A program made the position numbers and the translations under genes. Below are positions 6,164 through 26,235 of a stretch of 31,265 nucleotides of DNA, piece by piece. The notes beneath the pieces were generated by a model. That model ran no database searches. It was not told the origin of the DNA and was given only the letters and a program-made list of their open reading frames with translations. Source of the DNA: a virus (lineage: Duplodnaviria; Caudoviricetes); the IMG/VR virus record IMGVR_UViG_3300037483_000960, positions 1-31,265 of that record, one strand, 5' to 3'. Each line of letters opens with the position of its first letter. The stretch's first letter is position 1.

Positions 6164-6673
6164 TTAGCCGTTCGCCGTGAAGACGTTGATGTAGAGGGGA
6201 ACGATCGAGCCCGCGCCGCCGGACTTCTTGAAGTAGGCGCCTACGACGGCACGCGCGCTCGCGGTGTCGGCGCTCTTCCGCCAAGCGCCGAGCACCGAGC
6301 CACCGGGACCAGACTCGAACCGGACAAAGGCGTTGTCTCCCTGGACGACGGCCTCCTCGACCTTGACCAAGACGACGCCCTCTTCCATGAGGTCGAAGCG
6401 ATCGTCGGTGGGAATGCCAGCATCGCTCGCCCACGCTGTGGAGCCGATCGTGTTGACGTCGTGGCGGTGGACGGCGATGCCGGCGAGCTTGTCGCCGGTG
6501 GCGGCGAGGTAGACCGCCTCATCGTCGTTGGTGCCCTTCTTCATGGCGACGCCGAAGGGCATGGGGGCGCCGGTCTTGTTCACGGCGCTGGCGATGCGCC
6601 GCGGCCCCTCATCGGCGATCTGGCCGGGGAAGCCAACTGCTGGAGCGAGGGGGTAGCTGGTGATCCCTGGCAT
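6164..6673 (-). CDS. Head decoration / cement protein
   Basis: GFPGQIAD..MPFGVAM..EGVVLVKVEEAV; lies between protease and capsid genes. Confidence 0.75.
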   Translation of the reverse strand: MPGITSYPLAPAVGFPGQIADEGPRRIASAVNKTGAPMPFGVAMKKGTNDDEAVYLAATGDKLAGIAVHRHDVNTIGSTAWASDAGIPTDDRFDLMEEGVVLVKVEEAVVQGDNAFVRFESGPGGSVLGAWRKSADTASARAVVGAYFKKSGGAGSIVPLYINVFTANG

Positions 6674-6721
6674 GTTCTCTTCTCCTGTCGAAGCGCTTTT
6701 GCGGCGGGGAAACCTTCGCGG

Positions 6722-8416
6722 CTATGCCGTCATGCCGACGTTGGGTTTCTTCCAGGCGTCCTCTGACGTCTTGGTGTTCTTCTTGTGGACCTCGTCAGCG
6801 TCCAGGTGCTCGGGCTCGTCCTTGCGATCTTGAGGAGCACCCGTCGCGCCGCGAGCAGCGGCGAGGCCCCGCGAGGCCGCGGTCTTCTCTTGCGAGACGA
6901 GGGCGCCCCGGTAGACCGCCTCCACGAAGGCGTCCGGCTCGCCGTCGAGCTTCACGTCGGGGAGGATCTTCATGATGACGGCCTCCTTGATCTTCCGGTC
7001 GGAGAGCTCATCGATCTTGGCCTGGGCGCCGAGGATACCCTTGGCCTTGTCTTCGAGCGCGACGCGGGCGCGGATGAGCTGCGGGAGGGCGTCCTGGGCG
7101 TCCTTGCGCGTCTTCTCGAGCTCGGTGACCTTCGATTCGGCCACGGTGGCGCGGGCGCGGAAGGCGTCGGTGTCGGCCTTCGCCTGGGTCGCGGCCTGCG
7201 CGGCGTCGGCGCGAGCCTGCTTGAGCGTCTTCTCCGACCCGTCGGCCCTCTCGTCACGCGCGGCGAGGGCGCGCTCGATGAGCTGTGCGCCCTGATCGTT
7301 CGCTACCTCGACCTCGATGCCGTCGATCTTGATCTTCACCATTCGATCCTCGGTGGTTCGGTTCTTGGGGCCTGGCAGCGGCTCGTCACAGATCCCGCGT
7401 ATCGCCACCCCGTCGGCCGTGTCCAGCTTGAGCCGCAGATCGGGCCCGCCTCGGGCAGTGCCGACCACGGCAACGTGATTTCCGCGGATGTTCCGCTGGA
7501 TGCAGTCGTAGCGCTGGCCCTGGTACTCCCCGGGCGCGTCCTCGAGGTCGCACGTGTAGCCGCAGGAGAGCTTGTCCTTGCCGGCGGTGACGGCTTTCAC
7601 GAGGTCGGCGTCGGTGATGAGGACGGTGGCGCGGACCTTGTCTCCGTCGCGCCTCACGGTCTCGCCGAGGTGGCCGCGCTGGTACTCGCGAGTGTTTTCG
7701 GAGTCGAGGAGTCCATCGGGAGGATGGTTGTCGGTGATGGGGACCATCGCGAAAGACGCGAGCGCGTCGGAGTGGAAGACGACGTCCTCGGGCCGGAGCT
7801 CGCGGCGCATCGAGCCGTCACCGCGGCGGTACTCCTGGATCCCGGTGCGCGCGATCGCGGCGTCCGCCTTGAGCCAGCCGTTGGGAAGGAGCGTGGGGCC
7901 ATCGAGGCGCTCGATGACATCGAAGCGTCGGACGGTGCGCGTGATGGCGCTGTCCTTCTTGGTCCTCTCGAGCGTCCTGCTGTAGCCGCTGGCCTCGGTC
8001 GCCCGGCGCGACATCAGCGCGGCCTCGTCTGTGCTGTCCTCCGCGCTACCGCTTGGATGCGTCCGATGGAACTGTGCGGCGCGGACGTGCTGGACCCATG
8101 CCTGCTCGTGCGCGTTGCCGCTCTGTGAGTGTAGGCCGTGCTCGTCGACCTTGGCGCGGTGGAAGCGCGCCGCCTCATTGTGGGAGCGCTCGTCCTTCGC
8201 CGACCCGGCAGCGGCCCAACGACCGTGATCGTCGCGAGGCACCTCGGCATCGCTACGCTCAGTGTCGCCGCGCTCCTTCTCAGGGGGGGCGCTGGCGTAG
8301 AGCGCTCGCTGCTGCGCCTTGGCGTCCTCCTCGGTGTCGTGCTCCCCGTGGACCTCGCCGGTCTCCGCGTTGACGCACGCCCATCTCTCGCCTCGCTTCT
8401 CGACCGCGTATGGCAT
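6722..8416 (-). CDS. DUF2213 prohead protease/scaffold with N-terminal extension
   Basis: IARTGIQEY..VPITDNHP..LSCGYTCDL..QRNIRGNHVAVVGTARGG; coiled-coil C-terminus. Start moved to ATG 8416 (MPYAVEKRG) because upstream DNA is low-complexity/promoter sequence. Confidence 0.88.
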   Translation of the reverse strand: MPYAVEKRGERWACVNAETGEVHGEHDTEEDAKAQQRALYASAPPEKERGDTERSDAEVPRDDHGRWAAAGSAKDERSHNEAARFHRAKVDEHGLHSQSGNAHEQAWVQHVRAAQFHRTHPSGSAEDSTDEAALMSRRATEASGYSRTLERTKKDSAITRTVRRFDVIERLDGPTLLPNGWLKADAAIARTGIQEYRRGDGSMRRELRPEDVVFHSDALASFAMVPITDNHPPDGLLDSENTREYQRGHLGETVRRDGDKVRATVLITDADLVKAVTAGKDKLSCGYTCDLEDAPGEYQGQRYDCIQRNIRGNHVAVVGTARGGPDLRLKLDTADGVAIRGICDEPLPGPKNRTTEDRMVKIKIDGIEVEVANDQGAQLIERALAARDERADGSEKTLKQARADAAQAATQAKADTDAFRARATVAESKVTELEKTRKDAQDALPQLIRARVALEDKAKGILGAQAKIDELSDRKIKEAVIMKILPDVKLDGEPDAFVEAVYRGALVSQEKTAASRGLAAARGATGAPQDRKDEPEHLDADEVHKKNTKTSEDAWKKPNVGMTA

Positions 8417-8430
8417 GGCCCCCACGTATC
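8414..8430 (-). promoter_or_regulatory. Putative late-gene motif GATACG-TGGGGGCC-ATG
   Basis: 17-bp exact match to 23278-23294; 11-bp core also at 20387-20397. Confidence 0.65.
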
Positions 8431-8645
8431 GCAGCGCGCCCGCTCGCGCGCCCACGCGCCCCACGCGCCACGCCCTCCCCACGCGCCCCACGGCCCCTCC
8501 CCACGCCCTCCTCGCGACCTTCCCGCGCGCCCCACGCCCGCGCCCATGCGACCTCCCCACGCGCTCCCCTCCCCCGCGCCATGGCGCGCCATATGGCCGC
8601 CGCTCGCCCCTGCGCGGCCTCCCACGCCCCTGCAAGCGCCCGCGA
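8431..8645. repeat. C-rich low-complexity intergenic tract with recurring CCCACGC units
   Basis: Strong C>G skew on the + strand; diverged similarity to 11380-11580. Confidence 0.7.
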
Positions 8646-8675
8646 GCGACCTGTTTAGGCCCGGTTCTCCTGCGC

Positions 8676-8738
8676 TTACCCGAATGGCGATCTTGTCTTG
8701 CGTCCAGGTTTGACCTGCGACCGTGGATAAGGCATACT
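8676..8738 (+). promoter_or_regulatory. Island promoter P1
   Basis: TTACCCGAAT 8676-8685; TTGACC 8710-8715; 17-bp spacer with CGACCGT; CATACT 8733-8738. Confidence 0.85.
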
Positions 8739-8768
8739 CGAAACATCAAAGGCGAGGCACACGACGCA

Positions 8769-8957
8769 ATGCGACGACCAAATACGAACAGACCCAGAGG
8801 CAGGGCTTTGCACTATCAAGAGATCATCTGTACTGCCCCGATGGCGGACGCCGAGCTCGGGGAGGCGCCCTTCGCTGGGCTCACGGACAGCAGCGATCCG
8901 GCCTGGAACAGCGACGATCACGCGGATGACGAGCGCAGGACGGCTCGCGGCACCTGA
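8769..8957 (+). CDS. Small hypothetical protein (62 aa, acidic C-terminal half)
   Basis: First ATG after P1, GGCGAGG upstream; stop lies next to the RBS of the following gene. Confidence 0.45.
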   Translation: MRRPNTNRPRGRALHYQEIICTAPMADAELGEAPFAGLTDSSDPAWNSDDHADDERRTARGT

Positions 8958-8970
8958 GAGGAAAACACCC

Positions 8971-10317
8971 ATGGCGAAAATTGAGCTAACCATAGAGCAG
9001 CACTATGTTGATTGGGGCTTGGCCGAGGCCGTGCGCGAATTTGTTCAGAATGGCCTGGATGCTGAGCAGGACGGGCACGCGTTCACGGTCTCATATGACG
9101 CGCGAAAGGAGTCGCTCCTGTTCGTGTCGGAGGGCGCGAGCCTCACGACGCGCACGCTACTGCTCGGCTCGACAACCAAGCGGGAGCGGTCGGACCAGAT
9201 CGGGAAATTCGGCGAGGGGTACAAGCTCGCGCTCCTGGCGTGCGTGAACGCGGGCCACCCCGTCGTGTTGCGCACGGGAGACGAGCGATGGGTTCCCAGC
9301 ATCGAGTGCTCGATGAAGTTTGGGGGGGCAAGGGTGCTCGTTATCTCGACGCTCAAGCGGCCGACGCAGAGCCTCGACGCGGTGAGTATCGAGGTGGGCG
9401 GCGTCACTGGGGAGGCATGGCAGGAGATCCGCCCTCGGTTCCTGTCGCTCGAGCCCCCGCTCGAGACTGCGCGGTCGGAGGGGCAGGGGACGATCCTCCT
9501 CGATGAGGAGTACGCGGGGAAGGTCTACCTGAGCGGGATCTTCGTCCAGAAGATCGATGATTTTCGGTATGGCTACGACCTTCCGGCGCGGCGCGTGTCG
9601 CTCGACCGCGACCGGCGCATGGTCGATCGCAGCCAGGCGGAATGGGCTATCGCGCAGCTCTGGGGGGCCGTCTGCGAGCAGGATCCCGAGCACCTCGACG
9701 CCTTCATGTCGCTCTTGAGCTCGGGCGCGCCGGACGTGCGTTCCGCGCGATACGGCTCTGCGACATCAACCCTGGTGAAGCAGGGGCTCGCCGCGCTCTT
9801 CCGCGAGCGGTTCGGTGACACGACCCTGCCGGTGTCCTCCGAGGAGGAAGGCGAGCAAGCTCGAAGCATCGGCCGGCGTGGCGTGGTGGTTTCGGCGGAG
9901 CTGCGAGAGATCCTGTGGCCCGAGGTCGGGAACCTGGCGACGGCGCGAGACGAGCTCCGCCGTCAGGTCGCGACCGAGGTTGAGATCGAGTCCCTCGCCG
10001 CGAGCGAGGCGCAGCACTGGGCGCGAGCGGTCTCGCTCGTCTCGCGCGTCCGGCCGCACCTTCGTCTCGCCCAATTCAAGATCGTCGAGTTCCCCTCGCC
10101 CGATCTGCGCGGCCTCTACAAGTCGGAGCCTGACAAGGACTCGGAGATCCAGATCTCCCGCTCGACCCTAGCCACCTTCAAGTCTGTCCTCACGACCGTG
10201 GTTCACGAGGTCGCGCACGACACGGCCGGCGGCGCACGCGATGCCTCGATCGACTTCGAGCTCGCGCTTCAATCCCTCTGGGCTGACATCGTCCAGAGCC
10301 TCGCAACCCCGAGCTAG
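8971..10317 (+). CDS. GHKL-type ATPase fused to C-terminal HEXXH metallopeptidase-like domain
   Basis: AVREFVQNGLDA (N box), LLLGSTTK, IGKFGEGYKLA (G2 box); LTTVVHEVAH near the C-terminus; GAGAGG RBS. Confidence 0.8.
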   Translation: MAKIELTIEQHYVDWGLAEAVREFVQNGLDAEQDGHAFTVSYDARKESLLFVSEGASLTTRTLLLGSTTKRERSDQIGKFGEGYKLALLACVNAGHPVVLRTGDERWVPSIECSMKFGGARVLVISTLKRPTQSLDAVSIEVGGVTGEAWQEIRPRFLSLEPPLETARSEGQGTILLDEEYAGKVYLSGIFVQKIDDFRYGYDLPARRVSLDRDRRMVDRSQAEWAIAQLWGAVCEQDPEHLDAFMSLLSSGAPDVRSARYGSATSTLVKQGLAALFRERFGDTTLPVSSEEEGEQARSIGRRGVVVSAELREILWPEVGNLATARDELRRQVATEVEIESLAASEAQHWARAVSLVSRVRPHLRLAQFKIVEFPSPDLRGLYKSEPDKDSEIQISRSTLATFKSVLTTVVHEVAHDTAGGARDASIDFELALQSLWADIVQSLATPS

Positions 10318-10364
10318 CTCCGCGTCCAGTACGCGACCGTGGTTGACACTCACCGTGAGGCCCC

Positions 10365-11375
10365 ATGATGTACGCTGAGACGCTGGATCCCTCGATGCGC
10401 GGCCTCCTTGCCGCGTGGACGCTCCCGCCCGCTCGGCGGAAGGCGATCCTCGCCGGTGCGGAGCTGCGCATCGAGGGCCTTATCGCGGCGGGGTACCTGT
10501 CGCGGTTCCCGAACGGCGCGCTCTATCTCGCCGACGGCGGAACGCTCGTATTGGGCCCGAAGATGAGGGCAACGCTCGAGGAGCTCGCGATGGTCATGCG
10601 CGCGAAGGGCGAGCCGTTGCCAGCGGCGGCGGGGCCGAGGATCGCGGCGCCGGCCGCTCCGCTCGAGGGGGGCGGCTACCGTGCCGAGTGCATGCGCCTG
10701 CGCGCGACGGTGGCGCGGCTCGAGGAAGAGCTCCGAAGCGTGGGGAGCGCGAGGCCGCGCGCCTCGAGGCCGAAGGCCTCCGCCGCGGACCCGTTCTCGA
10801 CGCCGGCCAGGGCACTCGTCGCGTGGTACGCGGCGGCCGGGCCCGACGCCTTCCATCTGCCCGGCTGGCGGAAGACGGTCATGGACGATCACGGGCGCCT
10901 CTCGCCGGAGGCGTTCGGGGCGGCCATGCTGGAGCGGGTCGAGGGGACGCGAGCGCTCGCCGCGAGCTCGGCGGCCTACCTTGCCGCGGGCGAGGCCGCC
11001 ACGGGCAAGGGTTCGGGCACCTACTACTGGCATCCGCGCCTGCGCTGCTACGTGCGGGCGCCAGCGCGGGGTGAGGCACGCGACGCCTTCGAGCGGGAGG
11101 TCCGCGCGCAGTACCAGGAGGCTCGCCGCGCGAGGATCCTGGGCGAGCGGCGAGCCGGCCAGCGAGCTCGCGCGGAGAAGCGCCGGATCGCGAAAGCGGC
11201 GGCCGAAGACGTCGGCGCATGCCCCCGGCACGCGCCCATCGCCTTCCGAATCCGTCACGCGCTCGAGGCGAGCCGAGCGGCTCGGAAGGCTTCCCACTTC
11301 CCGCGCACGCGCAAGCGCCCGCGCGCGAACACGCGCCCGCGCAAGCGGCGCTCGCACCTCAAGCTCGTCTCGTAA
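10365..11375 (+). CDS. Hypothetical protein, Arg/Ala-rich basic C-terminus
   Basis: 336-aa ORF co-oriented with neighbours, GC-rich third positions; no family recognised. Confidence 0.6.
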   Translation: MMYAETLDPSMRGLLAAWTLPPARRKAILAGAELRIEGLIAAGYLSRFPNGALYLADGGTLVLGPKMRATLEELAMVMRAKGEPLPAAAGPRIAAPAAPLEGGGYRAECMRLRATVARLEEELRSVGSARPRASRPKASAADPFSTPARALVAWYAAAGPDAFHLPGWRKTVMDDHGRLSPEAFGAAMLERVEGTRALAASSAAYLAAGEAATGKGSGTYYWHPRLRCYVRAPARGEARDAFEREVRAQYQEARRARILGERRAGQRARAEKRRIAKAAAEDVGACPRHAPIAFRIRHALEASRAARKASHFPRTRKRPRANTRPRKRRSHLKLVS

Positions 11376-11379
11376 CCGT

Positions 11380-11580
11380 GCGCGCCTGCGCGGCGCAGCG
11401 CGCTCGCCGCGCCTCCTATCCCAGCGCGCCCGCGCCCGCGCGAGCCCCGCGCGCCCTCCCCTACCCCACGCCCTAGCCCCGCCATATCGCGCGCCCCCAC
11501 GCGCCATACGGCCCCGCGCGGCACCGCGATGCCCCGCGCACCACTCCCGCCGCTCCCTTGATCCCCTGAGCGCGCCCCAA
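11380..11580. repeat. Second C-rich low-complexity intergenic tract
   Basis: C skew; shares CCCCACGCCCT and CGCGCCATAYGGCC with 8431-8645. Confidence 0.65.
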
Positions 11581-11612
11581 AGGCCGCTAGAATTGACCCG
11601 GGTTTCCATCAC

Positions 11613-11675
11613 TTACCCGAATCGCTATTTTCTTTTCCGACCGTACTTGACGTGCGCCCGTAGATGAGCGATACT
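11613..11675 (+). promoter_or_regulatory. Island promoter P2
   Basis: TTACCCGAAT 11613-11622; T-rich tract; TTGACG 11647-11652; 17 bp; GATACT 11670-11675. Confidence 0.85.
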
Positions 11676-11723
11676 CCAATCATCGAAGGGCAACCAAGCC
11701 CCCGAAGAAAAGCGAGAGACACG

Positions 11724-11879
11724 ATGACTGCAAAGGCCCTGAAGACCCTCCACCACAACGCCGCAGTGAAGGCGTGGGTCACCCGCAACGCCAACCTGAA
11801 GGCCGCGGCGAAGGCGGCGAAGGCCTCGCAGTTCGTCCCGCTTCGCCTGCGCTTTCCTTCTGCGGCTGCGAAGGCCTGA
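11724..11879 (+). CDS. Basic Ala/Lys-rich peptide, 51 aa, one KAWxTR motif
   Basis: MTAKALKTLHHNAAVKAWVTRNAN...; paralog at 13927; GAGAG RBS-like site after P2. Confidence 0.75.
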   Translation: MTAKALKTLHHNAAVKAWVTRNANLKAAAKAAKASQFVPLRLRFPSAAAKA

Positions 11880-11885
11880 GCGGTC

Positions 11886-11949
11886 GGGCGGCCCCAAGGG
11901 GCCGCCCCCTCACCAGACCTCTCGAGCTCGCTCGAGGGGCCATGCGAGG
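11886..11949 (+). ncRNA. Twin-hairpin cis element, copy A
   Basis: GGGCGGCCC/GGGCCGCCC stem abutting CCTCACC-AGA-CCTCTCGAG-CTCG-CTCGAGGGG-CCA-TGCGAGG. Confidence 0.65.
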
Positions 11950-11983
11950 GCGCAGCACACACACATCACGGAAGGGACACACC

Positions 11984-13117
11984 ATGGCGGTCATCGCGCA
12001 GACGACGGAACAGCGGCAGGTAGCGCAGGGCAAGCTCGGGGCGATCATCCAGGCCGGGCGAGCGAAGGCCGCGCAGGGGCTCGAGGCAATGCAGCGCGAA
12101 TTCAAGATGCGCAAGGATCTGCGCGTGCGGCCAGGCGCCATCGACATCGAGACCGTGGAGAGCGACGGCGGGTTCAAGTGGAGGCCCGTTGTCGTCGACA
12201 AGAAGGCCGGGACGCGCGTCGCTTTCGAGATGACGGGCCACGCCCGCGGCCAGTTCCTCTCACGCGCCGGGATCCCGGGCGCGTTCGTCGACACCCTCGT
12301 CCAGCACGGCCAGGCCGAGCTTCTCCGTGAGAACATCCTGAAGGTGCTTCCCCATGAGTCGGCCGATGGCCTCCTCGTCCGCACGGTGGGCGACACGGCC
12401 AAGGCGTTCCTCTCGCCCGCGTACAAGTGCCTCGACAACGCGCTTTTCTTCGACACGTTCGTTGAGGAGTCGCTCAAGGCGAAGCTCGTCCCCTACCGCG
12501 GCGAGGTGTCCGACACGCGCGGCTTCCTGTCCTTCCTGCGGCCCGAGATCGTCGAGATCGCGCCCGGAGAGTTCGTGGTTCCGGGCGTCGAGATGCGCGG
12601 CTCGGACTACGGGAACGGCGCGCAGGAACTGAATGCGATGTTTCTGCGCCTCCTGTGCCTGAACGGAGCGGTCGGTTACGACATGTTCCGCAAGATCCAC
12701 ATCGGCCGCCGTTTCAGCTCGGCCGAGTACGGCGAGGACAATGTCATCAAGCTGTCGCAGAAGACGATCGAGCTCGACGTCTCGACGGTCCGATCGGCGC
12801 TGTCGGATACGATGAAGGGCGTCACCAAGCACCTGGACGCCTTGACCGAGTCGCTTCGCGAGGCCGCCACGAAAGAGATCAACGTCGAGTCGACAATCTC
12901 CGTGCTGAAGAAGAAGGGGCTGAAGACGGCATCGCTCGCGAAGGTGAAGGCCCTGTATGAGAACGAGGCCTTGCCGGTCGAGGCGCTCCCGGCCGGCCAG
13001 GGCGCGTGGAGGCTCTCGAACGCGCTGTCCTTGCTGGCGAACGCGACGAGCGACGTGGACGAGGCCGCCGACCTCCGGGACGCCGCCTATGCTGTGCTGC
13101 CCATGCCGAAGGCCTAA
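11984..13117 (+). CDS. DUF932-like protein
   Basis: LLVRT..AFLSPAYKCLDN..GSDYGNGA..FLRLLCLNG..KIHIG..AWRLSNAL; GGAAGGG RBS. Confidence 0.75.
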   Translation: MAVIAQTTEQRQVAQGKLGAIIQAGRAKAAQGLEAMQREFKMRKDLRVRPGAIDIETVESDGGFKWRPVVVDKKAGTRVAFEMTGHARGQFLSRAGIPGAFVDTLVQHGQAELLRENILKVLPHESADGLLVRTVGDTAKAFLSPAYKCLDNALFFDTFVEESLKAKLVPYRGEVSDTRGFLSFLRPEIVEIAPGEFVVPGVEMRGSDYGNGAQELNAMFLRLLCLNGAVGYDMFRKIHIGRRFSSAEYGEDNVIKLSQKTIELDVSTVRSALSDTMKGVTKHLDALTESLREAATKEINVESTISVLKKKGLKTASLAKVKALYENEALPVEALPAGQGAWRLSNALSLLANATSDVDEAADLRDAAYAVLPMPKA

Positions 13118-13123
13118 GAGTAT

Positions 13124-13188
13124 GGGCGGCCCCGGGGGGGCCGCCCTCTCACCCGACCCGCCGAGGAGACTCGGCAGGCCAGGTGAGA
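13124..13188 (+). ncRNA. Twin-hairpin cis element, copy B (diverged, compensatory changes)
   Basis: TCTCACC-CGA-CCCGCCGAG-GAGA-CTCGGCAGG-CCA-GGTGAGA after the GGGCGGCCCC hairpin. Confidence 0.65.
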
Positions 13189-13219
13189 AGCGCAGCACTC
13201 CAGCGGAAAGGAAGCCGTC

Positions 13220-13783
13220 ATGCAGGCGACTCAAGCGGCGTTGCTCGCGGCGATAGCTACCAAGCGGCCCGACCCGAAAGATCTCATCGGGAAGAAGAAC
13301 CGGATCCCGAGCGGACCCGACGAGATCCCGACGCCGGGCGTCAGCCGCCTGGGCTTCTCGGGCGTCATGCGAGGTCTCGCGAATAAGGGCCTGGTCGTCT
13401 GCTACCCCGGACCCTCCGTCAGCCTCACCGTGAAGGGCGTCAAGGCGTACCTCGAGAGCAACGCGTCCGCGCCAGCGCCCGAGCCTGCCCCCGCGCCCGC
13501 GCCCGCGCCCACCCCGAAGGGCAAGGCCCCCCGCACGCCAGCGCCTACCCCTGCGACCGTCGCCGAGCTCTCCCCCGCGCAGAAGGCGTGGGTCACGCGC
13601 CGCGCAACGGCCGCGGCGAAGGCCGCCGAAGCCTCCACCCCCGCGCCCGCGCCGAAGGGCAAGCCCCCCCGCGCGCCAGCGCCTACCCCCGCGGCCGGCG
13701 GCGAGCTCTCCCCCGCGCAGAAGGCGTGGGTCACGAGGCGCGCGATGGCCGCCGCGAAGGGCAAGGCCCCCGCGCCCGTGTAG
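13220..13783 (+). CDS. Putative winged-helix protein with Pro/Ala linker and two LSPAQKAWVTRRA repeats
   Basis: L..KGLV...LTVKG wing-like motif; 138-bp internal duplication; paralog at 14243. Confidence 0.75.
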   Translation: MQATQAALLAAIATKRPDPKDLIGKKNRIPSGPDEIPTPGVSRLGFSGVMRGLANKGLVVCYPGPSVSLTVKGVKAYLESNASAPAPEPAPAPAPAPTPKGKAPRTPAPTPATVAELSPAQKAWVTRRATAAAKAAEASTPAPAPKGKPPRAPAPTPAAGGELSPAQKAWVTRRAMAAAKGKAPAPV

Positions 13784-13813
13784 GAGCCAGAATTAGCCCC
13801 GGGGTTCCATGAG

Positions 13814-13876
13814 TTACCCGAATAGCGATTTTCTTTTGCGTCCATGCTTGACGTCCGACCGTGGATAGGGCATACT
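13814..13876 (+). promoter_or_regulatory. Island promoter P3
   Basis: TTACCCGAAT 13814-13823; TTGACG 13848-13853; 17 bp with CGACCGT; CATACT 13871-13876. Confidence 0.88.
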
Positions 13877-13926
13877 CAATCATCGAAAGCGAGGCACACC
13901 GCCCCGCAAGGAAAAGAGAGAACACC

Positions 13927-14139
13927 ATGACTGCAAAGACCTTCAAGAGCATCCGCCACGCAGCCGCAGTGAAGGCCTGGAACACCCGCAACGCGAACAG
14001 CCGGAGCGCGATCGCAGCGAAGGCCTGGAAGACCCGCAACGCCAACGCGGCGAAGGCTGCGGAGGTGAAGGCCACGGTGGTGAAGGTGGCGAAGGTGGTA
14101 GCGGCGAAGGCGAAGGCTGCGAAGGCGAAGGCCGCCTGA
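13927..14139 (+). CDS. Basic Ala/Lys-rich peptide, 70 aa, two KAWxTR motifs
   Basis: MTAKTFKSIRHAAAVKAWNTRNANSRSAIAAKAWKTRNAN...AKAKAA; paralog of 11724. Confidence 0.78.
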   Translation: MTAKTFKSIRHAAAVKAWNTRNANSRSAIAAKAWKTRNANAAKAAEVKATVVKVAKVVAAKAKAAKAKAA

Positions 14140-14147
14140 GCGAGCGC

Positions 14148-14210
14148 GGGCGGCCCGAAGGCCGCCCCCTCACCCGACCTCTCGAGCGAGCTCGAGGGGC
14201 CGTGTGAAGG
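14148..14210 (+). ncRNA. Twin-hairpin cis element, copy C
   Basis: GGGCGGCC-CGAA-GGCCGCCC then CCTCACC-CGA-CCTCTCGAG-CGAG-CTCGAGGGG-CCG-TGTGAAGG. Confidence 0.65.
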
Positions 14211-14242
14211 ACCGCAGGACAAACCGAAGGAAGGGACGCACC

Positions 14243-14818
14243 ATGACCGACATCGAGAGCGCACTACTCACCGCGATCGCCACATCCAGGCCGGACCCGA
14301 AGGACATGGTCGGGAAGAAGGGGAAGGTTCCCAGCACCTACAAGGCCTTCCCGATCGAGGGCATCACTCGCCGAGGGTTCGGCGGTGTCGTGAATGCGCT
14401 CATGCGCAAGGGTCTCGTGGCCTGCTACCCCGCGCAAGGCAAGGAGCCGATCGGGATCGCCCTGACCGCCAAGGGGCTCGAGGCCTATCGCGCCCTGCCG
14501 CCAGCCCCCGCGGCGAGCGAACCCGCGGCCCCCGCGAGCGAGCCTGCCCCCGCGCTCGAGGTCGCCACCCCTGCGCCCGCGAGCGAGCCCGCGCCCGCGC
14601 CCATGCCCGTGCCCGACGAGGCCGCATGGGCGGCGCAGATCGCGTCCTACATCGCGACCAGCATGCCGGTTGCCCCACCACCGAAGCCCACGCCCGCGCC
14701 CGGAACCGCAGGCCTGTCCCCCGCCCACAAGGCATGGGTCACGCGCCGCGCCATGGCCGCCGCCAAGGCCGCCGCGGAAGCCGCGCAGATCGCCAGCGCG
14801 GCCGTGTCGCCGAAGTGA
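14243..14818 (+). CDS. Paralog of 13220: putative winged helix, Pro/Ala linker and LSPAHKAWVTRRA
   Basis: Shared ALL.AIAT.RPDPKD..GKK..GF.GV...L..KGLV.CYP..LT.KG..AY. Confidence 0.78.
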   Translation: MTDIESALLTAIATSRPDPKDMVGKKGKVPSTYKAFPIEGITRRGFGGVVNALMRKGLVACYPAQGKEPIGIALTAKGLEAYRALPPAPAASEPAAPASEPAPALEVATPAPASEPAPAPMPVPDEAAWAAQIASYIATSMPVAPPPKPTPAPGTAGLSPAHKAWVTRRAMAAAKAAAEAAQIASAAVSPK

Positions 14819-14831
14819 CGCCACGACGGAA

Positions 14832-14863
14832 GGGGGCTTGTCGCGCTCGCGCCACAAGCCCCC
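14832..14863 (+). terminator. GC-rich hairpin, possible terminator
   Basis: GGGGGCTTGT / ACAAGCCCCC perfect 10-bp inverted repeat after the stop; no U tract. Confidence 0.5.
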
Positions 14864-14914
14864 CCCTCCCTACCCGCACCTACCAGACCAGCGCGATTAA
14901 TGTTGCGTCCATGC

Positions 14915-14943
14915 TTGACATACGACCGTAGATAGGCGATACT
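14915..14943 (+). promoter_or_regulatory. Island promoter P4
   Basis: TTGACA 14915-14920; 17 bp with CGACCGT; GATACT 14938-14943; CAATCATCGA leader as in P2 and P3. Confidence 0.88.
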
Positions 14944-14993
14944 CAATCATCGAGGGACGGGGCAAGGGGCCCCGAAGAAAACGGAGAGACACC

Positions 14994-15719
14994 ATGAACA
15001 TCGCCGACAAGATCAAGAAGCTCCTGGCCCTCGCGCAGTCTTCCAATCCGAACGAGGCCGCCCTCGCCGCGGCTCGCGCGCAGGAGCTCATGGTCAAGTA
15101 TGCGATCGACGAGGCGCAGCTCGCGGGCACGCCCGGCCATGTCGAGGAAGAGATCAAGTCGGAACCAATGAGCGGAAAATACGGCGCCGTGCAGCACTGG
15201 CACGCGCAGCTCGCCGACGCGATCGCGCGCTCGTTCTTCTGTCGCGTCTACTTCGTCCCCCGCGGTGACGTCTACATGGTTGGTCGGGCCACGGATCGCG
15301 AGGCCCTCCGCGCCACCTACCTCTACCTCCTGGGCGAGATCACGCGCATGAGCGACTCCGCATGGATCGCCGCGCGAGCGGGCCTCCCCATGCTGAAGAG
15401 CCAGCAACTCGGCGGGTACGCGATCAAGTGGAAGCGCGCCTTCCATGTCGGCGCCGTGGCCACGGTTCGCGAGCGCCTCGTCTCGAGCCTTCGAGAGCTG
15501 AGCGCCGCCGCGCCCTCCGCCAACGGGTCGGCCCCGAGCGTCGCGATCGTCCTCGCCGCGCTGCAAGAGGCCGTTGACCTCTACGTCAAGAAGAGCCTCA
15601 ATCTGCGAACGACCTCGAGCCGGCCCGTCAACCCGAGCGGCTACGAGCAAGGGCAGAAGGCCGGCTGGTCCCTCAACCTCGACGAGCGCGCCGGTGCCAG
15701 CAAGCGCCTTGGCTCCTAA
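14994..15719 (+). CDS. DUF2786-domain protein
   Basis: IADKIKKLLALAQSSNPNEAALAAARAQELMVKYAI N-terminus; GYEQGQKAG C-terminus. Confidence 0.85.
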   Translation: MNIADKIKKLLALAQSSNPNEAALAAARAQELMVKYAIDEAQLAGTPGHVEEEIKSEPMSGKYGAVQHWHAQLADAIARSFFCRVYFVPRGDVYMVGRATDREALRATYLYLLGEITRMSDSAWIAARAGLPMLKSQQLGGYAIKWKRAFHVGAVATVRERLVSSLRELSAAAPSANGSAPSVAIVLAALQEAVDLYVKKSLNLRTTSSRPVNPSGYEQGQKAGWSLNLDERAGASKRLGS

Positions 15720-15789
15720 AGCCGCCCCCTACTCACCCGAAGGGCCCGGAGCGCACGGCGAAGGTGGCGAAGGCCGCCTGAGCGAGCGC

Positions 15790-15853
15790 GGGCGGCCCCG
15801 AGGGGCCGCCCCCTCACACGACCTCTCGAGCGAGCTCGAGGGGCCATGCGAGG
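15790..15853 (+). ncRNA. Twin-hairpin cis element, copy D
   Basis: GGGCGGCCC/GGGCCGCCC then CCTCACA-CGA-CCTCTCGAG-CGAG-CTCGAGGGG-CCA-TGCGAGG. Confidence 0.65.
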
Positions 15854-15880
15854 CGCAACACAGCGAAGGAAGGGGACACC

Positions 15881-16093
15881 ATGAGCGCACCGAAGAGGAA
15901 GCTCGTCACCGTCGAGAAGGTCGTCGGTGGGCGCGAGGATGGCATGTGGATCTGCCGCGACTGGCGCCGTTGCTTCATCCTTGTCCGCGGATCCAGGCGC
16001 GAGGCACTCGAGGATGGGCTCGCCTACGCCATCGGCCACGCCGGCCGCGCGTGCCTCGACCTGTCGCTCTTCGATGTAAGCCTCGACCGCTAG
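15881..16093 (+). CDS. Hypothetical protein, 70 aa
   Basis: GGAAGGGG RBS and ACACCATG start context as in other island genes. Confidence 0.7.
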   Translation: MSAPKRKLVTVEKVVGGREDGMWICRDWRRCFILVRGSRREALEDGLAYAIGHAGRACLDLSLFDVSLDR

Positions 16094-16113
16094 ATCCCCA
16101 GGAGCCCGCAACC

Positions 16114-16590
16114 ATGGAAACCGATCACATGTACACGCTGAAGGGTCACCACGAGCTCAAGACCTCAGACGGCTACGCCATGGCCGGGTGGCTCTGCTGC
16201 GACGGGGTGAAGATCGCCACCTACGAGGACGGCGGATACGGCGGCGAGATGCGCGTGGACTACGTCGGAGGTGGAACGGGAGCAGTGGCGGCCGAGGCCG
16301 CGCTTATCGCGCACCTTGCTGCGCTCCCCCCGATGCCTGCAGGCTACGAGGGCGGCGAGCCGATGGCGTGGGACGTCTCTTGCTTCATCGGGCACCTCGC
16401 CGACGCAGCGGCACACGAACGGCGCTTGAATCGGCTGTGCATGAGAAACACGGTGTTCACCGTCCCCGGAGACCCAGAGGGCGAGCTCCACACCCTGAAA
16501 GTCGCCGTCAGCGACAAGGCACGCGCGTTCGTCCTGCGGAAGTACCCGGGCGCCGTCATCCTCAACGATCGCGTCGTCAAGAAAACCTAG
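16114..16590 (+). CDS. Hypothetical phage protein, 158 aa
   Basis: AGGAG RBS; DGVKIATYEDGGYGGE segment; start moved to ATG 16114. Confidence 0.7.
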   Translation: METDHMYTLKGHHELKTSDGYAMAGWLCCDGVKIATYEDGGYGGEMRVDYVGGGTGAVAAEAALIAHLAALPPMPAGYEGGEPMAWDVSCFIGHLADAAAHERRLNRLCMRNTVFTVPGDPEGELHTLKVAVSDKARAFVLRKYPGAVILNDRVVKKT

Positions 16591-16597
16591 CCCGTAC

Positions 16598-16626
16598 TTG
16601 ACGTGCGACCACTTTCCGCGCATGCT
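16598..16626 (+). promoter_or_regulatory. Island promoter P5 (variant spacer)
   Basis: CCGTACTTGACGTGCG identical to P2; TTGACG 16598-16603; 17 bp with CGACCAC; CATGCT 16621-16626. Confidence 0.7.
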
Positions 16627-16647
16627 GCAAGGAGGAGGCACCACCTC

Positions 16648-17223
16648 ATGCCGAAGGCTGCGACCGCCCGTAGACCACTGGAGCGCCAGCGCCGCGAGCG
16701 CGGGGCCGCTGCGCTGCGCTCCTTCGAGACGATCCGTCTACTGCTGGCCGAGCCTCAAACGAAGTCGGGCCTCAAGGAAGAGCTGGGGTGCTCTATCTCG
16801 AGTGTCGAGCGGCTGATCCAGGACATCGAGGGCGCTGGGTTGACGCTCGACTCGGAGCGCTCCGCGCCCAAGCTGAACGCCGAGGGGGCGCCGAAATACC
16901 ACTCGGAGAGCGGGCAATATGTGCTGTACCGGCTTCTTCCTGAGACGCTCACGCGACGTCTCGCGTCGCGCAGGCGGCGCGATAACGACTCGACGACCGC
17001 ACAGCTCCTCGACATGATCCACCTGCTCGAAGGGAAGAAGCACACGCCCGGAGATCTCGCGAAGCGACTCGAGTGCTCGCGCAGGACGGTCGAACGACTC
17101 TTCCACGTGCTCCGCGGGGCGGGCCTCACGCTTGACAGCGAGCGTAGCGGACGAGAGGTGTACTACAGTCTCCCGAGCGAGACGCTCGCAACCATGCTCG
17201 GGCAGGCCGCACTGAAGGGATGA
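16648..17223 (+). CDS. Tandem winged-HTH protein (two HTH_11 / WYL-regulator-type N-terminal domains, no WYL domain)
   Basis: Repeats LGCSISSVERLIQDIEGAGLTLDSERS..LYRLLPETL and LECSRRTVERLFHVLRGAGLTLDSERS..YYSLPSETL; AGGAGG RBS. Confidence 0.8.
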   Translation: MPKAATARRPLERQRRERGAAALRSFETIRLLLAEPQTKSGLKEELGCSISSVERLIQDIEGAGLTLDSERSAPKLNAEGAPKYHSESGQYVLYRLLPETLTRRLASRRRRDNDSTTAQLLDMIHLLEGKKHTPGDLAKRLECSRRTVERLFHVLRGAGLTLDSERSGREVYYSLPSETLATMLGQAALKG

Positions 17224-17235
17224 AGGAGGCTGAAA

Positions 17236-17655
17236 ATGGCGATGAGCATGGAGCGGCGCGCAAACCTCTGGAGCTTGGGCGAGAAGATCAGGACGGCCGC
17301 GCCCATGGAGGCCACGGACGACGCGGAGCTCGCGAACGCTGTACCGGAGCTGCTCGTGGAGATCGATCGGCGAAGGGCCGAGGCGGATAAGCTCCTGGCA
17401 GCGGCCGAGGCGGACGACCGACCCCCGTTCGCACGCAGGATTGCGGCCTCCCCGCTCGACCTGAAGACCCTCGACGAGACGAGAGGGGTCGCCCGCAAGC
17501 TCGCGACGGGCGCAGCGACCGAGGATGAGGTGGGCTACCTCGCCGCCGAGGCGCCCGACCTGCTCGAGGAGCTGGAGCGGCTCGAGGGGATCATCTACGG
17601 GCGCTTCGGCTGGACCGAGGAGGATTTCGAGAAGGGCGGCGTCAGAATCGAGTGA
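17236..17655 (+). CDS. Hypothetical acidic helical protein
   Basis: GGAGG RBS; internal repeat AVPELLVEIDR / EAPDLLEELER; converges on the ART gene with a 14-bp overlap. Confidence 0.7.
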   Translation: MAMSMERRANLWSLGEKIRTAAPMEATDDAELANAVPELLVEIDRRRAEADKLLAAAEADDRPPFARRIAASPLDLKTLDETRGVARKLATGAATEDEVGYLAAEAPDLLEELERLEGIIYGRFGWTEEDFEKGGVRIE

Positions 17656-20383
17656 GGCTGTCCTCTTTCGCGCCACGCTTCGAGAGGCCTACCGGACTCG
17701 CGCCCAGGTACTCGCCGTCGAGCACCGTGTAGCCGTCAGTCGTCTTATAGACCTTGTTGATCTGCCAGCGGCTGTCGCGGTTCGGCAGGAGCTCATGCTC
17801 GCTCGTCCAGTAGCGAACACGCGTACCGGCCGGCATGCGGATCCGCATGAGGACCGCCTTTGTTTTGTCACTACCCGCGAACTCGATGGCCTTATCTATC
17901 GAGAGCGAGTGTGACGAAAACCCCTCGTCATGGAGGATCCCGCTCTTGCCAGCCAGGACGCTTGCGGGATCCTTCGCGAGCTTCCCGTACTTGAATCCGC
18001 GCCACACCACGAAGTCCCGGGGCGTCTCAGGGGCGGCGTTCAAGGCCTCGGTGAGCGCGCGCAGCATGTCCGCGTTCTTTCCGTCCTGGACATTGCCACC
18101 TCGAAGGTGGTCATTCATCCACTCGAAGCCGATACCCTTGAAGCTGCCCATGGCGTGCTGCATCGCGCCCGAGAGCCACTTGCTCCACTTCTCGAAGGGG
18201 CCGGTGGTCTTCTCCTTTATCTCCTGGTCGGCGTGATTCGGGTTCTCCCCGCCGAGCTGCTCTTGGGCCTTGTGCCTCTGGAGGCCGAGGGGCTTGGCCT
18301 TCCACGTGCCACCTCCGGCCTTCGGTGACTCCGACGCGGGCGACGGCTCCGGTGGCGCTGTGGCGTTCCCCTCGAACTTCTTGAGGTAGGCCGAGGCCTC
18401 TTCGAGCTTCCCCGCCTTGATGAGCTTCGAGTAGGCCGCCTTGTGGCCGGCCTTCATGGTGGAAGGCTTCGCGCCGGCGTTCTGGTGAGGCGCTGGAGGC
18501 GCCGCCTTTTCCGGCTCGGGCTCGGGCTCGGGCTCGGTCGCCGCGGGAGCGGTCTGTGTCGGGGGCGGCGGTGGCGCGTTCGCAGGGAGTACCCACGGCT
18601 TCCCGGTCTCAGGGTCGAGGGACGGCTTGCTCGCGCCGGATGCTGCCTGCGCGGTCGAGGTCTGCTCCTGGAGGAGGTGAGCCTGGGCCGCCACGTAGGG
18701 GAGCCGCTCCTCGCCGGTCTCCTTCGGCGTGAGGCCGTGCGATGACTGCGCGTGGATGTTGGTCGGGGTCTGTTCGGCTTGCTTTGCCTGTTCAGCCTCG
18801 ATCGCCTTGGCCAGGTGCGCCTCGGCGTTCGGGATGACCTTCTGGTGCCAGATCTCGAGCTCGTGGAGGTCGGTGGTCTTCGCCGCGAGCTCGTGGTTCT
18901 CGGCCAGGCTCGCCTTCCACTTTTCGATGTCCGGGCTCGTGAGCTTGGCGAGGGTCGCCGCCTCCGCCGCGTTGCCCTTCTTCGTCAGCGCTGCCTTCAC
19001 CCCAGGGGTGAGCTTCGGGAGCGGGTTCTGTTCGTGGTGAAGACCGCCCTGGAACTGGCCGCCACCGGGCTGGCCGGCGGGGATGCGCAGGAACTCCTCC
19101 TCGTTCCAGTCCTCACGCGCGCCGTCCTGGTGCGCGAACTTGAACGGCTTGCCCTGGACACCGCCGATGAGCTTCTCGAAGTCGCCACGGATCGATTCCT
19201 TCCGAGCCACCGCGGCCTTGACGAAGGCCTCGCCCTTCCCGATGGACTCTGCGTAAGGCCGCACGAGGCTTGCGAACCGTTCGCTCGGGATGGCCTCGAC
19301 CTTGGCGATCGTCGGCGCGAGCTCGTGCGGGTTCCACTTCACGGACCCGTCGCCGACGCCCTTCCAGAACTGATTGTAGTAGGGCGGTTTCTCGCCGTAT
19401 ATCTCGGTGTTGGGCTGGTAGTGGACGTCGAGCTTGTCCTTGCCGAAGTAGCGGTAGCCCTGCTCCTTGTCGATGCCGACCACGCGGCCGTCAGACGTGC
19501 GCAGGAGGTTCCCTCCGTGCGTGTCGTGCTGGCTCATGACCCAGTCGAGAACGTGTTCCTGGGCGACGTCGAGCTTCTCGCGCTCCGTGAGCTTCGAGGG
19601 CTCGACCTGGGCGAGGTTCGAGGGGCTCCCGAGCGAGAGGATCGGCTGGAGGGTGCCGAGCTTGCCGTTGATGGTCGCGGCTGCGACCGGGACGTGGTCC
19701 TTGACCTCATGTACGACCTCCGCGAAGGCGACCTGGGCATGCACGGCATAGGGCTTGGGCTCGTTTGTCCCCTTCACCGTCGCGGCCTTGAAGAGCCAGC
19801 GCTGGCCGGTGGCGTCCTTGTAGACGTCTTTCTCGCCCGCGCCGCCCATGTCCTTCCCGCTCTGCTCGAAGGTGAGCGCGTCCGGCGAAGGCACCGAGAC
19901 GCGAGAGAGCGCGGCGAGCGATCCAGGCGCCGCAGCGGACGCGACCGGCGCTGGCGGCTCATGCGCGGCCGGAGCCAGGGGCTCATGTGGCGCCGCGGCC
20001 GGCGTCGGCTGTGTGGCCGGCGCCGAAGCCTTGGCGAACTTTCCGCGGTAGGCCGCTGCCGCCTCGTGCTTGCCTCCCGCGACGAGCTTCGAGTGGTGAG
20101 CCTTGTGCGCAGCGTTCATGCCCGCGGGGAGGCCGTGGGCAGTGGTCCACTGGCCGCCCTTGCCGCGTGGGACGTCTTCCCATCCGGCGTCGGAGCGGTC
20201 GCGCAGCTCGGCGAGGAACGCCCATCCGAGCTTCTCGAGCTTCGCCTTCTGTGATGGCGAAAGAGACAGCGGGGCGGAGTCAGCTCGGAGCACCTTTGGG
20301 CTTGGCGCGCCTCGGCGGTGGAGGACGACGGTGCGTCTCGCGGCGACGTCGGCCCTGAACTGTGCGAGCTTCCTGCTGTTCAC
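17642..20383 (-). CDS. MuF-adjacent multidomain effector: HipA/PI3-4-kinase-like domain plus C-terminal VIP2-like ADP-ribosyltransferase
   Basis: Kinase: MGGAGEK..RWLFK..LDWVMSQHDTHGGNLL..VVGIDKEQ. ART: VVWRG..DEGFSSHS..SEHELL (R-S-E triad). Start GTG 20383 or 20392. Confidence 0.82.
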   Translation of the reverse strand: MNSRKLAQFRADVAARRTVVLHRRGAPSPKVLRADSAPLSLSPSQKAKLEKLGWAFLAELRDRSDAGWEDVPRGKGGQWTTAHGLPAGMNAAHKAHHSKLVAGGKHEAAAAYRGKFAKASAPATQPTPAAAPHEPLAPAAHEPPAPVASAAAPGSLAALSRVSVPSPDALTFEQSGKDMGGAGEKDVYKDATGQRWLFKAATVKGTNEPKPYAVHAQVAFAEVVHEVKDHVPVAAATINGKLGTLQPILSLGSPSNLAQVEPSKLTEREKLDVAQEHVLDWVMSQHDTHGGNLLRTSDGRVVGIDKEQGYRYFGKDKLDVHYQPNTEIYGEKPPYYNQFWKGVGDGSVKWNPHELAPTIAKVEAIPSERFASLVRPYAESIGKGEAFVKAAVARKESIRGDFEKLIGGVQGKPFKFAHQDGAREDWNEEEFLRIPAGQPGGGQFQGGLHHEQNPLPKLTPGVKAALTKKGNAAEAATLAKLTSPDIEKWKASLAENHELAAKTTDLHELEIWHQKVIPNAEAHLAKAIEAEQAKQAEQTPTNIHAQSSHGLTPKETGEERLPYVAAQAHLLQEQTSTAQAASGASKPSLDPETGKPWVLPANAPPPPPTQTAPAATEPEPEPEPEKAAPPAPHQNAGAKPSTMKAGHKAAYSKLIKAGKLEEASAYLKKFEGNATAPPEPSPASESPKAGGGTWKAKPLGLQRHKAQEQLGGENPNHADQEIKEKTTGPFEKWSKWLSGAMQHAMGSFKGIGFEWMNDHLRGGNVQDGKNADMLRALTEALNAAPETPRDFVVWRGFKYGKLAKDPASVLAGKSGILHDEGFSSHSLSIDKAIEFAGSDKTKAVLMRIRMPAGTRVRYWTSEHELLPNRDSRWQINKVYKTTDGYTVLDGEYLGASPVGLSKRGAKEDSLTRF

Positions 20384-20397
20384 CTTCCCCACGTATC
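20384..20397 (-). promoter_or_regulatory. Putative late-gene motif GATACG-TGGGGAAG before GTG 20383
   Basis: Same core and same 8-nt spacing to an in-frame start as at 8430 and 23294. Confidence 0.6.
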
Positions 20398-20417
20398 AAG
20401 GGGGCGCAGCAGGGGCG

Positions 20418-21275
20418 TCAGCCGGCCTCGCCAGTCAGCTCGGAGATGAGATCCTCGAGCAGCGGCTCCGCCCAGCAGCGGCAGTTGACCTCGTCACCCG
20501 GGACCATGGGCTCACCGTCTCGGCCTGGCGGCGGGTCGTCCCACCGGAAGACCTTGCCCTCGAGCCGCTCGTGATCCTCGCGCACGCGGTTATCACGCAT
20601 CGTGCGCCACCTGAAGCTATCAACGCCGAGATCGCGCTGGCGCTCTTCGTTGAGGGCGCCGCAGAACTTCCCGACCTGGTCGCGTGCGACGAGCTGAGCG
20701 TGCCTTTCGGCCACGCCGGTCCTGGCCTCGATGGTATCGGCGAGGCCTTCCCAGCGCACGCCCTCACGCATGCCGCGGATCACCTGAGCCTCGACGTCAT
20801 CGAGGTATCGGACCGGGATGGACTTCACGAGCGTGACGTTCTCGCGCGTGAATGCCTCGACCTTGGGGGCGAGCCAGGGCTCGGCCTTGATGATGTCGAT
20901 GCCGAAGGCGGCCTGGAACTGCTTCCCGAGCTCCCTTTTCTGGAAGGAGGCGGTCCGGTTGCCGATGCTGCGCGCGACCTCGGCGAAGCGTGTATTCGTC
21001 CACTCCTTGAAGAAGTCGCGAGCGATGGAATCGAAGAAGGCCTTGAAGTCGATCGCGTCGCTGTGCACGGCGTCACTCCTGTCCGGGCCGTAGGTGCGCG
21101 CGAGCTCGGCGAACCTCGGCTTGAGAGCGGCGAGCACGCGCGCCTTGATCTCCCGGACCATGGTGCGGAGGGCGGCGAAGTAGCTCATGCGGATCGCGTC
21201 GGGTTGAAGCTGGTGGGGTAGCGCGCGAGCCGTCCGCAGCCGTCCCGAGCGAGCAAGCATAGCGTCGAGCCTCAC
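20418..21275 (-). CDS. Head morphogenesis protein (MuF / SPP1 gp7 family)
   Basis: LVARDQVGK..FRWRTMRDNRVREDH..PGDEVNCRC. Confidence 0.92.
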   Translation of the reverse strand: MRLDAMLARSGRLRTARALPHQLQPDAIRMSYFAALRTMVREIKARVLAALKPRFAELARTYGPDRSDAVHSDAIDFKAFFDSIARDFFKEWTNTRFAEVARSIGNRTASFQKRELGKQFQAAFGIDIIKAEPWLAPKVEAFTRENVTLVKSIPVRYLDDVEAQVIRGMREGVRWEGLADTIEARTGVAERHAQLVARDQVGKFCGALNEERQRDLGVDSFRWRTMRDNRVREDHERLEGKVFRWDDPPPGRDGEPMVPGDEVNCRCWAEPLLEDLISELTGEAG

Positions 21276-23280: not shown

Positions 23281-23294
23281 GGCCCCCACGTATC
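23278..23294 (-). promoter_or_regulatory. Putative late-gene motif GATACG-TGGGGGCC-ATG
   Basis: 17-bp identity with 8414-8430. Confidence 0.65.
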
Positions 23295-25408: not shown

Positions 25409-25437
25409 TTGACATACGACCGTGGGTGATATATACT
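25409..25437 (+). promoter_or_regulatory. Promoter P6 of the island family, probably leaderless
   Basis: TTGACATACGACCGT identical to P4; 17-bp spacer; TATACT 25432-25437; ATG 8 nt later with no RBS. Confidence 0.85.
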
Positions 25438-25445
25438 CTTTATGC

Positions 25446-26219: not shown

Positions 26220-26235
26220 GCGAAGGGGGCTCATC

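Follow-up and report, generated by a model that had tools for sequence, protein, structure and literature searches.

Introduction

The closest described relatives of the locus reported here are the promoter-early stem-loop (PeSL) cassettes of T4-type phages. In the cited sections of two accounts, these are repeated units of ~100 nt that combine a sigma70-like promoter, an AT-rich upstream part, a ribosome site and a start codon; they precede genes without assigned function in a variable region, and shuffling by recombination between copies has been proposed (PMC2839356, PMC4122927). We report an island of ~9 kb in an uncultured sediment phage, virus record IMGVR_UViG_3300037483_000960, where 13 plus-strand open reading frames (ORFs), antisense to the head genes, lie between the protease gene and an ORF with an ADP-ribosyltransferase (ART)-like end and are combined with copies of a promoter-like repeat (P) and a twin hairpin (H). 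The window analysed is the whole record, 31,265 nt at ~68% GC. We favor, with modest confidence, the reading that an accessory gene array has been assembled from these repeated parts between two head-gene blocks, that host RNA polymerase likely transcribes it early, and that it likely gains, loses and duplicates units through homologous recombination between the repeats.

As in PeSL cassettes, promoter repeats of sigma70 consensus with an AT-rich upstream region stand before uncharacterised genes. The island differs in that promoter and hairpin are two separate repeat families rather than one composite unit, and in that H lies inside the transcript, past a stop codon and ahead of the following ribosome site, with a long stem that is irregular. 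The genome is also of another kind, a GC-rich, non-T4 phage with six P copies in 31 kb, as opposed to about 50 PeSL copies per genome in the sections cited. As regards the mini-circles and terminator activity of PeSL cassettes, H lacks a U tract, and contigs of two runs, which drop rare forms, gave no credible joints.

A second group of analogues comes from plasmids. In the CUP regulons of IncN plasmids with ArdK, the loss of regions has been attributed to recombination between repeats (PMC3490853), and repressed establishment promoters are known from the Reg576-controlled genes of p576 (PMC9723621, PMC6294495), as far as the cited parts of these sources go. The island resembles both in placing several accessory units behind a shared promoter repeat, and in a co-located repressor candidate that has its own related promoter and is here predicted to bind it. 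It differs in its phage head-gene context, which is not a conjugative leading region, and in the extra hairpin part; no ard, ssb or anti-restriction family turned up among the island proteins in family scans. The sequence-only reading from which we started recognised no described system in this combination of parts, but PeSL cassettes (PMC2839356) and CUP regulons come close to it. Because promoter and stem-loop do not form one composite unit, and because the integron hallmarks discussed below are missing, we set the island apart from PeSL and integron systems as a variant.

The same reading had named early phage regions as analogues. With its clusters of host-type promoters and the long, irregular stems that separate its small genes, the island does recall the early region of T7 and the host-takeover module of SPO1. 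The island differs from these in lying mid-genome between head genes and not, as far as known, at the first-injected end, and no homolog of a T7 or SPO1 gene was found. Literature searches on DUF932 and DUF2786, anti-defence and repeated promoters returned no account of the island or of its motif, the KAW motif described below not itself being among the search terms. The cited part of a review of SPP1 (PMC6316719) describes no repeat mechanism.

Promoter and hairpin repeats

A scan for consensus sigma70-type promoters across positions 8000-18000 called four sites, all on the plus strand, compared with 0.4 +/- 0.7 in shuffled sequence. Their -35 boxes lie at 8710, 11647, 13848 and 14915, and the four copies align over ~93 nt at 73%: P1 (8660-8752, TTGACC-17-CATACT), P2 (11597-11689, TTGACG-17-GATACT), P3 (13798-13890, TTGACG-17-CATACT) and P4 with its leader (14903-14997, TTGACA-17-GATACT). 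A weaker fifth copy, P5 (16598-16626, plus strand, TTGACG-17-CATGCT), matches the -10 box at 3/6 positions and was not called by the scan; both of its boxes are identical in the relative L033. Repeat alignment placed a sixth copy, P6 (25409-25437, plus strand), outside the island ahead of an antisense DUF5131 gene, and aligned weakly a possible degenerate remnant at 10322-10342, before orf336. P is found upstream of the GHKL-like, DUF2786 and DUF5131 genes as well as before the small peptides. A pattern count of 8 versus 0.76 was discarded as circular, the pattern having been derived from the counted sites.

We propose that the P sites act as host sigma70-type promoters, which would become active when the DNA enters the cell or on induction. 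Of the 8 P copies of the window and L033, 7 retain a CGACC box directly behind the -35, among them P5, the promoter of the tandem helix-turn-helix (HTH) gene; the exception, P2, has one change, and the remaining spacer varies among copies. The tandem-HTH protein (16648-17223, plus strand; HTH_11 in two stretches, E 4e-13) is a candidate repressor of the P promoters that would probably shut the array off by binding this box, at its own promoter too. It has homologs in L033 (56%) and L051 (40%, with a single HTH). Small stems fold in the leaders near P (z -0.2 to -3.0), and a single hairpin unrelated to H precedes P4 (14828-14871, plus strand, z -2.8). The sequence ACACCATG occurs exactly at 4 of the 13 island starts, which account for all exact copies in the window, and as near variants at about four more.

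The twin hairpin H occurs four times on the plus strand, as H1 (11886-11949), H2 of a second subtype (13124-13188), H3 (14148-14209) and H4 (15790-15853), with folding z-scores from -2.4 to -3.4. Each copy joins a 9-bp GC stem directly to an irregular stem of 19 positions, begins 6-8 nt after a stop codon, precedes a ribosome site, and lies at least 200 nt downstream of P, past a gene. Across six copies, those of the window and two of L032, 89% of the cells are paired (87% in the long stem, with a usual A-C mismatch), and five pairs have changed on both sides, all of them in the long stem. The covariation score was reached by 0/500 shuffles, a count over six related sequences and not a probability. 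A model built from the four window copies found no further full copy in the window, and Rfam gave no match at gathering score within the island, H included. These results bear out the modular layout that had been read from the letters alone, with its four consensus promoters, weaker fifth and four covarying hairpins. The twelve genes counted in that reading were 13 in its own layout, and one of these, orf62, is doubtful.

H was not called by the terminator scan. It lacks the U tract of an intrinsic terminator and likely serves RNA processing rather than termination. In the transcript it would be a processing or stabilising signal, most likely through an RNase III-type cut in the long irregular stem, and each downstream gene would be released by the cut together with a ribosome site of its own. 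The RNase III signals of the T7 early region have an 11-bp minimum helix in the cited part of the source (PMC3867540); H, which lies between genes, reaches this length and contains mismatches or loops, resembles them, and its cleavage is predicted on that likeness. Of the proteins encoded directly ahead of H, the three intact ones (stops near 11879, 13117 and 14139) have KA or KAA as their last residues, and the same holds for the DUF932 relatives in L032, L033 and L051. By resemblance this ending is possibly a C-terminal degradation signal.

Probable exchange between repeat copies

According to our reading the P and H repeats would serve as recombination points, and two features of the hairpins carry this part of the argument. 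First, H1 is identical to H4 at 59/64 positions and to H3 at 53/62, yet at only 43/64 to its positional ortholog L032a, which in turn matches H2 and its own neighbor L032b at 56-57/64, with 57/64 for the neighbor. The DUF932 genes behind H1 and L032a are 84% identical. The hairpin before DUF932 is thus of the H3/H4 type in the window and of the H2 type in L032, and comparison of the copies shows that one has been replaced by a paralog type. Secondly, H4 follows the DUF2786 gene but carries 33 nt identical to 14124-14156, where the peptide 2 gene ends and H3 begins. This scar (15720-15798, plus strand) consists of a fragment of an H junction followed by the peptide tail running into H4. Both features fit homologous recombination or conversion between copies, in agreement with the earlier inference of recombination between repeats. 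They are, however, alone no proof of foreign gene capture.

The position of H, an imperfect palindrome just past stop codons, and a XerC-like tyrosine recombinase gene in the window (27873-28877) would also suit an integron-like system, with H as the recombination site on which the phage recombinase acts in single-stranded DNA. We rejected this reading and regard it as highly improbable. The recombinase scored 31 bits, over a stretch of 57 aa, versus a cutoff of 265 for integron integrases and is closest to XerC; inspection of the alignment against the attC consensus showed no attC core boxes around H; and the scar and the identity pattern reach into coding sequence, as homologous recombination would produce.

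Variation among relatives

Cargo differs among the close relatives, as had been expected of an exchangeable array. L033, whose DUF932 protein is 85% identical, carries a Mom gene, followed by a P that directly drives DUF932; next come a truncated H, a toxin-antitoxin-like pair (Gp49/HTH), P5 and the tandem-HTH gene. The peptide-H unit is missing between two similar start contexts, the change of cargo falls inside H, and the toxin-antitoxin-like pair stands where the window has six genes. In L051 (70%), DUF932 is accompanied by unrelated small genes and a single HTH, in an antisense block that converges on MuF. More distant phages differ in the whole interval. In G001 and L123 the protease follows MuF within about 800 and 250 nt, respectively, with no island between; L114 (capsid 83%) has other same-strand genes and a transfer-messenger RNA gene upstream of the protease; and the contig of G002, the closest among the phages found by capsid or MuF, ends in a similar C-rich tract ~200 nt upstream of the protease. 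Since the interval between MuF and the protease holds the island, other genes or nothing in different phages, we regard it as a variable slot. The transfer-messenger RNA gene (L114:1180-1508) was found with Rfam RF00023 at 72 bits and missed by ARAGORN.

Searches beyond these fragments gave little. Scans of the viral contig collection with the P pattern, and of the viral and genome contig collections with the H pattern, found nothing. A single-protein DUF932 search and a tandem-HTH alignment search of viral contigs also found nothing, a MuF search gave one distant locus, and DUF932 in genome contigs gave two distant loci in metagenome-assembled genomes (47% and 28%). Over 96 loci the H model, which was partly built from the L032 copies, matched strongly in L032 alone, all others having E 0.1 or worse.

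Several observations weigh against our reading, and some of them favor a second one. In it, tandem duplications of a single local unit, promoter-peptide-hairpin-wKAW (wKAW denoting predicted winged-helix proteins with KAW motifs), have enlarged an early operon of mostly fixed content; the repeats arose as by-products and were homogenised by gene conversion, and ordinary illegitimate recombination accounts for the differences in cargo. Four of the 13 ORFs form two paralog pairs (peptides 1 and 2, wKAW1 and wKAW2), so duplication explains much of the repetition. The close relatives are only three, all short metagenome fragments, and in L032 (86%) the order peptide end-H-DUF932-H-wKAW is kept over the 1.5 kb available. 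In 3.4 kb of L051, whose cargo differs, neither P nor H was detected. The differing genes of L033 and L051 thus agree with exchange instead of fixed content, and the order of L032 and the repeats of L051 speak partly against it. Members of the DUF932 cluster and of both wKAW clusters, available as protein records only, come from contigs of the same sizes (9578 and 8668 nt), which suggests a conserved core; gene order is probably kept on such longer contigs, which for close relatives also include ones of 12.6 and 49 kb. A paired comparison of DUF932 loci with distant stretches showed no enrichment of repeats (5 versus 4 of 43). The spacer boxes shared by P copies could reflect common descent. 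Finally, no credible deletion joint between repeats appeared in the contigs of either of the two runs, contigs being prone to drop rare variants; comparison of the contigs with the window gave only joints that were short-sided and away from repeats, or that led to the window's own other repeat copies.

Local duplication accounts poorly for three other findings. H4 serves an unrelated gene and carries the scar of a peptide tail; L033 lacks exactly the peptide and H between similar start contexts, with the switch of cargo inside H; and P also drives the GHKL-like, DUF2786 and DUF5131 genes. We consider a largely fixed, duplicated operon possible but rather doubtful.

A broader claim, that repeat arrays are the general setting of DUF932, found no support, repeats being found near 7 of 56 distinct loci. 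Some distant DUF932 loci do have repeats of their own: L010 (9140-12410) has repeated promoters, a long hairpin after DUF932 and ACACCATG-like starts, L015 (2220-3810) a twin hairpin directly before DUF932, and L094 (1-2110) promoter-terminator repeats. These promoter and hairpin repeats are unrelated to those of the window. In another virus (L020:10001-12262) DUF932 adjoins a GHKL-like gene (37%).

Position between probable late transcription units

The minus strand of the window encodes, according to Pfam and PHROGs, terminase, portal, MuF, the 916-aa ORF with the ART-like end, protease, cement and capsid proteins. To the left of the island lies the head maturation protease/scaffold gene (DUF2213; 6722-8416, minus strand; Pfam E 4e-44, PHROG 530), and to its right the 916-aa ORF (17642-20392, minus strand), whose C-terminal ADP-ribosyltransferase-like domain was detected just under the cutoff (PF03496, E 8e-5). 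The motif GATACGTGG stands on the minus strand 5 nt upstream of the protease start (8422-8430), at the ART start (20389-20397) and at the portal start (23286-23294). These are its only matches in the window, versus 0.11 expected, for a pattern chosen from the same sites on which it was counted; it also precedes ATG/GTG codons in the relatives L112 and L114. Placed a few bases before structural starts, GATACGTGG is likely a late-promoter element and would give leaderless messages.

Because the portal, ART and protease starts each carry this motif, the island lies between late units and not inside one operon. The sequence-only reading had it inserted into the head operon; its antisense position among the head genes is correct, but "between late transcription units" describes the place better. 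On its left the island diverges from the protease start and on its right it converges on the ART stop, so that late transcription would not need to cross it. The island promoters form a class separate from the GATACGTGG class of the structural genes, in support of the earlier reading, and if GATACGTGG marks late starts the island would be expressed apart from the head genes. A C-rich, G-poor spacer (8431-8640, plus strand) separates the divergent late motif from P1, and a similar tract precedes P2 (~11401-11575).

Both junctions are bridged by single contigs (6932-12430 and 15769-21500) at a depth of 28-31, like that of the head genes, in run X1, the possible source of the record, and identical island pieces occur at ~3x in a second study (X2). 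Since single contigs of even depth span both, the junctions are not an assembly artefact.

Morons are typically antisense among late genes, and the island could accordingly be a lysogeny-phase moron or defence island. Its genes would then be expressed from the prophage by constitutive host promoters to shield the host, and the hairpins would act as attenuators or terminators that depend on Rho or another factor. Besides the antisense position, the XerC-like recombinase, the toxin-antitoxin-like pair at this place in L033, the C-rich tracts before P1 and P2, and the DUF5131 protein behind P6, which matches the PADLOC candidates PDC-M41B and PDC-M30B, would agree with such a role. This reading presupposes lysogeny, however; a ribosome site immediately follows H, the U tract is missing, and the island proteins match no PADLOC defence model beyond generic HTH and ATPase stretches. 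On balance we think a moron unlikely.

The unit behind P6 is a second antisense block (25409-26619, plus strand), consisting of P6, DUF5131 and orf127, and converges on a possible methyltransferase gene and a ParB-like gene. By eye the 916-aa ORF, which follows MuF, has a kinase-like middle part; its true start may be the GTG at 20383, and it is missing from the equivalent place in G001, L123 and L051. The contig starts, in the tail-gene region, with an exact 127-nt direct repeat (1-127 and 274-400).

Cargo genes

All cargo genes are on the plus strand. The first, orf62 (8769-8957), has no Pfam match and is doubtful as a gene because its GC content at third codon positions is 0.73, compared with 0.80-0.90 in the other 12 ORFs. 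It is followed by a 448-aa protein (8971-10317; PHROG 6077, E 4e-62) that has relatives in 104 phage records; a sequence search of PDB gave no match. The GHKL label of its N-terminus rests, weakly, on a sub-cutoff match to sacsin ATP-binding sequences (NF047352, E 1e-6), and the C-terminal HEXXH was read from the sequence. The three unassigned ORFs orf336 (10365-11375), orf70 (15881-16093) and orf139 (17236-17655), the last overlapping the ART stop by 14 nt, match no family in Pfam, PHROGs, NCBIfam or PADLOC. Another, orf158 (16114-16590), belongs to an unnamed phage family with no Pfam match and with Atlas look-alikes, mostly viral, at TM 0.72-0.81.

The DUF932-like protein (377 aa, 11984-13117; PHROG 1362) has no Pfam match itself, in contrast to its earlier label; 7 of 37 family members match weakly, and the predicted fold, which matches DUF932-named viral models and proteins at E 6e-15, confirms its membership of the family. 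Foldseek found no PDB match to the model at E<=0.001, and the best PDB candidates (VIA, Z 6.3; OB-fold chains, 5-6) were dismissed as within background. The labels DUF2786 and double HTH were confirmed, the former in a protein of 241 aa (14994-15719; PHROG 421) with Pfam matches to DUF2786 at E 1e-13 and to DUF7168 at E 7e-9.

Four further genes share the motif KAWxTR, present in six copies over two basic peptides and two predicted winged-helix proteins. Peptide 1 (51 aa, 11724-11879) is Lys/Ala-rich with one motif, and its paralog peptide 2 (70 aa, 13927-14139) has two motifs and 17 K+R; no homolog of peptide 2 scored. The predicted winged-helix domain of wKAW1 (13220-13783), assigned from weak structural look-alikes, is followed by a Pro/Ala linker and two KAWVTRR motifs, and wKAW2 (14243-14818) is its paralog. 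The family is very narrow, with four strong representatives, two of them the window's own, and seven weak matches among 1.84 billion proteins, and no match in GenBank phages.

Binding to nucleic acid is the likely role of the basic KAW peptides and tails. As a speculation with a slim chance of being right, we have considered that the KAWxTRR peptides and tails serve as portable modules for such binding and recognise the hairpins of their own array, much as lambda N does with nut sites. Peptide, hairpin and promoter would then form a self-regulating expression socket for swappable anti-host genes, a design that would recur in unrelated uncultured phages (L126, and L015 with its similar twin hairpin). 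The first of these, an unrelated phage found by its KAW motif, has at 6400-10986 a repeated promoter, an XRE-type HTH gene and small genes separated by hairpins. A 68-nt duplicated KAW-like tail occurs there on a 33-aa peptide and on an AAA ATPase, the array is antisense to a ParB gene, and a radical SAM gene converges on neighbors similar to those of the window's DUF5131 unit.

The cargo as a whole likely helps the phage to establish itself against the host. The more specific anti-defence or host-takeover function proposed at the outset gained no support. Searches of Pfam, PHROGs, NCBIfam, PADLOC and PDB matched none of the cargo genes to a characterised protein, which counts further against our reading and leaves the anti-defence interpretation without direct support.

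Conclusions

In conclusion, the presented data describe one hairpin copy that was exchanged for a paralog type in a readable way, together with the undescribed basic motif KAWxTRR and the candidate late-promoter motif GATACGTGG. If our reading of the island is correct, repeat-driven shuffling would not be confined to T4-type phages and would have a form in which promoter and hairpin are separate parts. P and H would then mark about a dozen uncharacterised genes as early-acting, and would offer a sequence handle for further cargo in this phage group and a shortlist for counter-defence and host-takeover screens.

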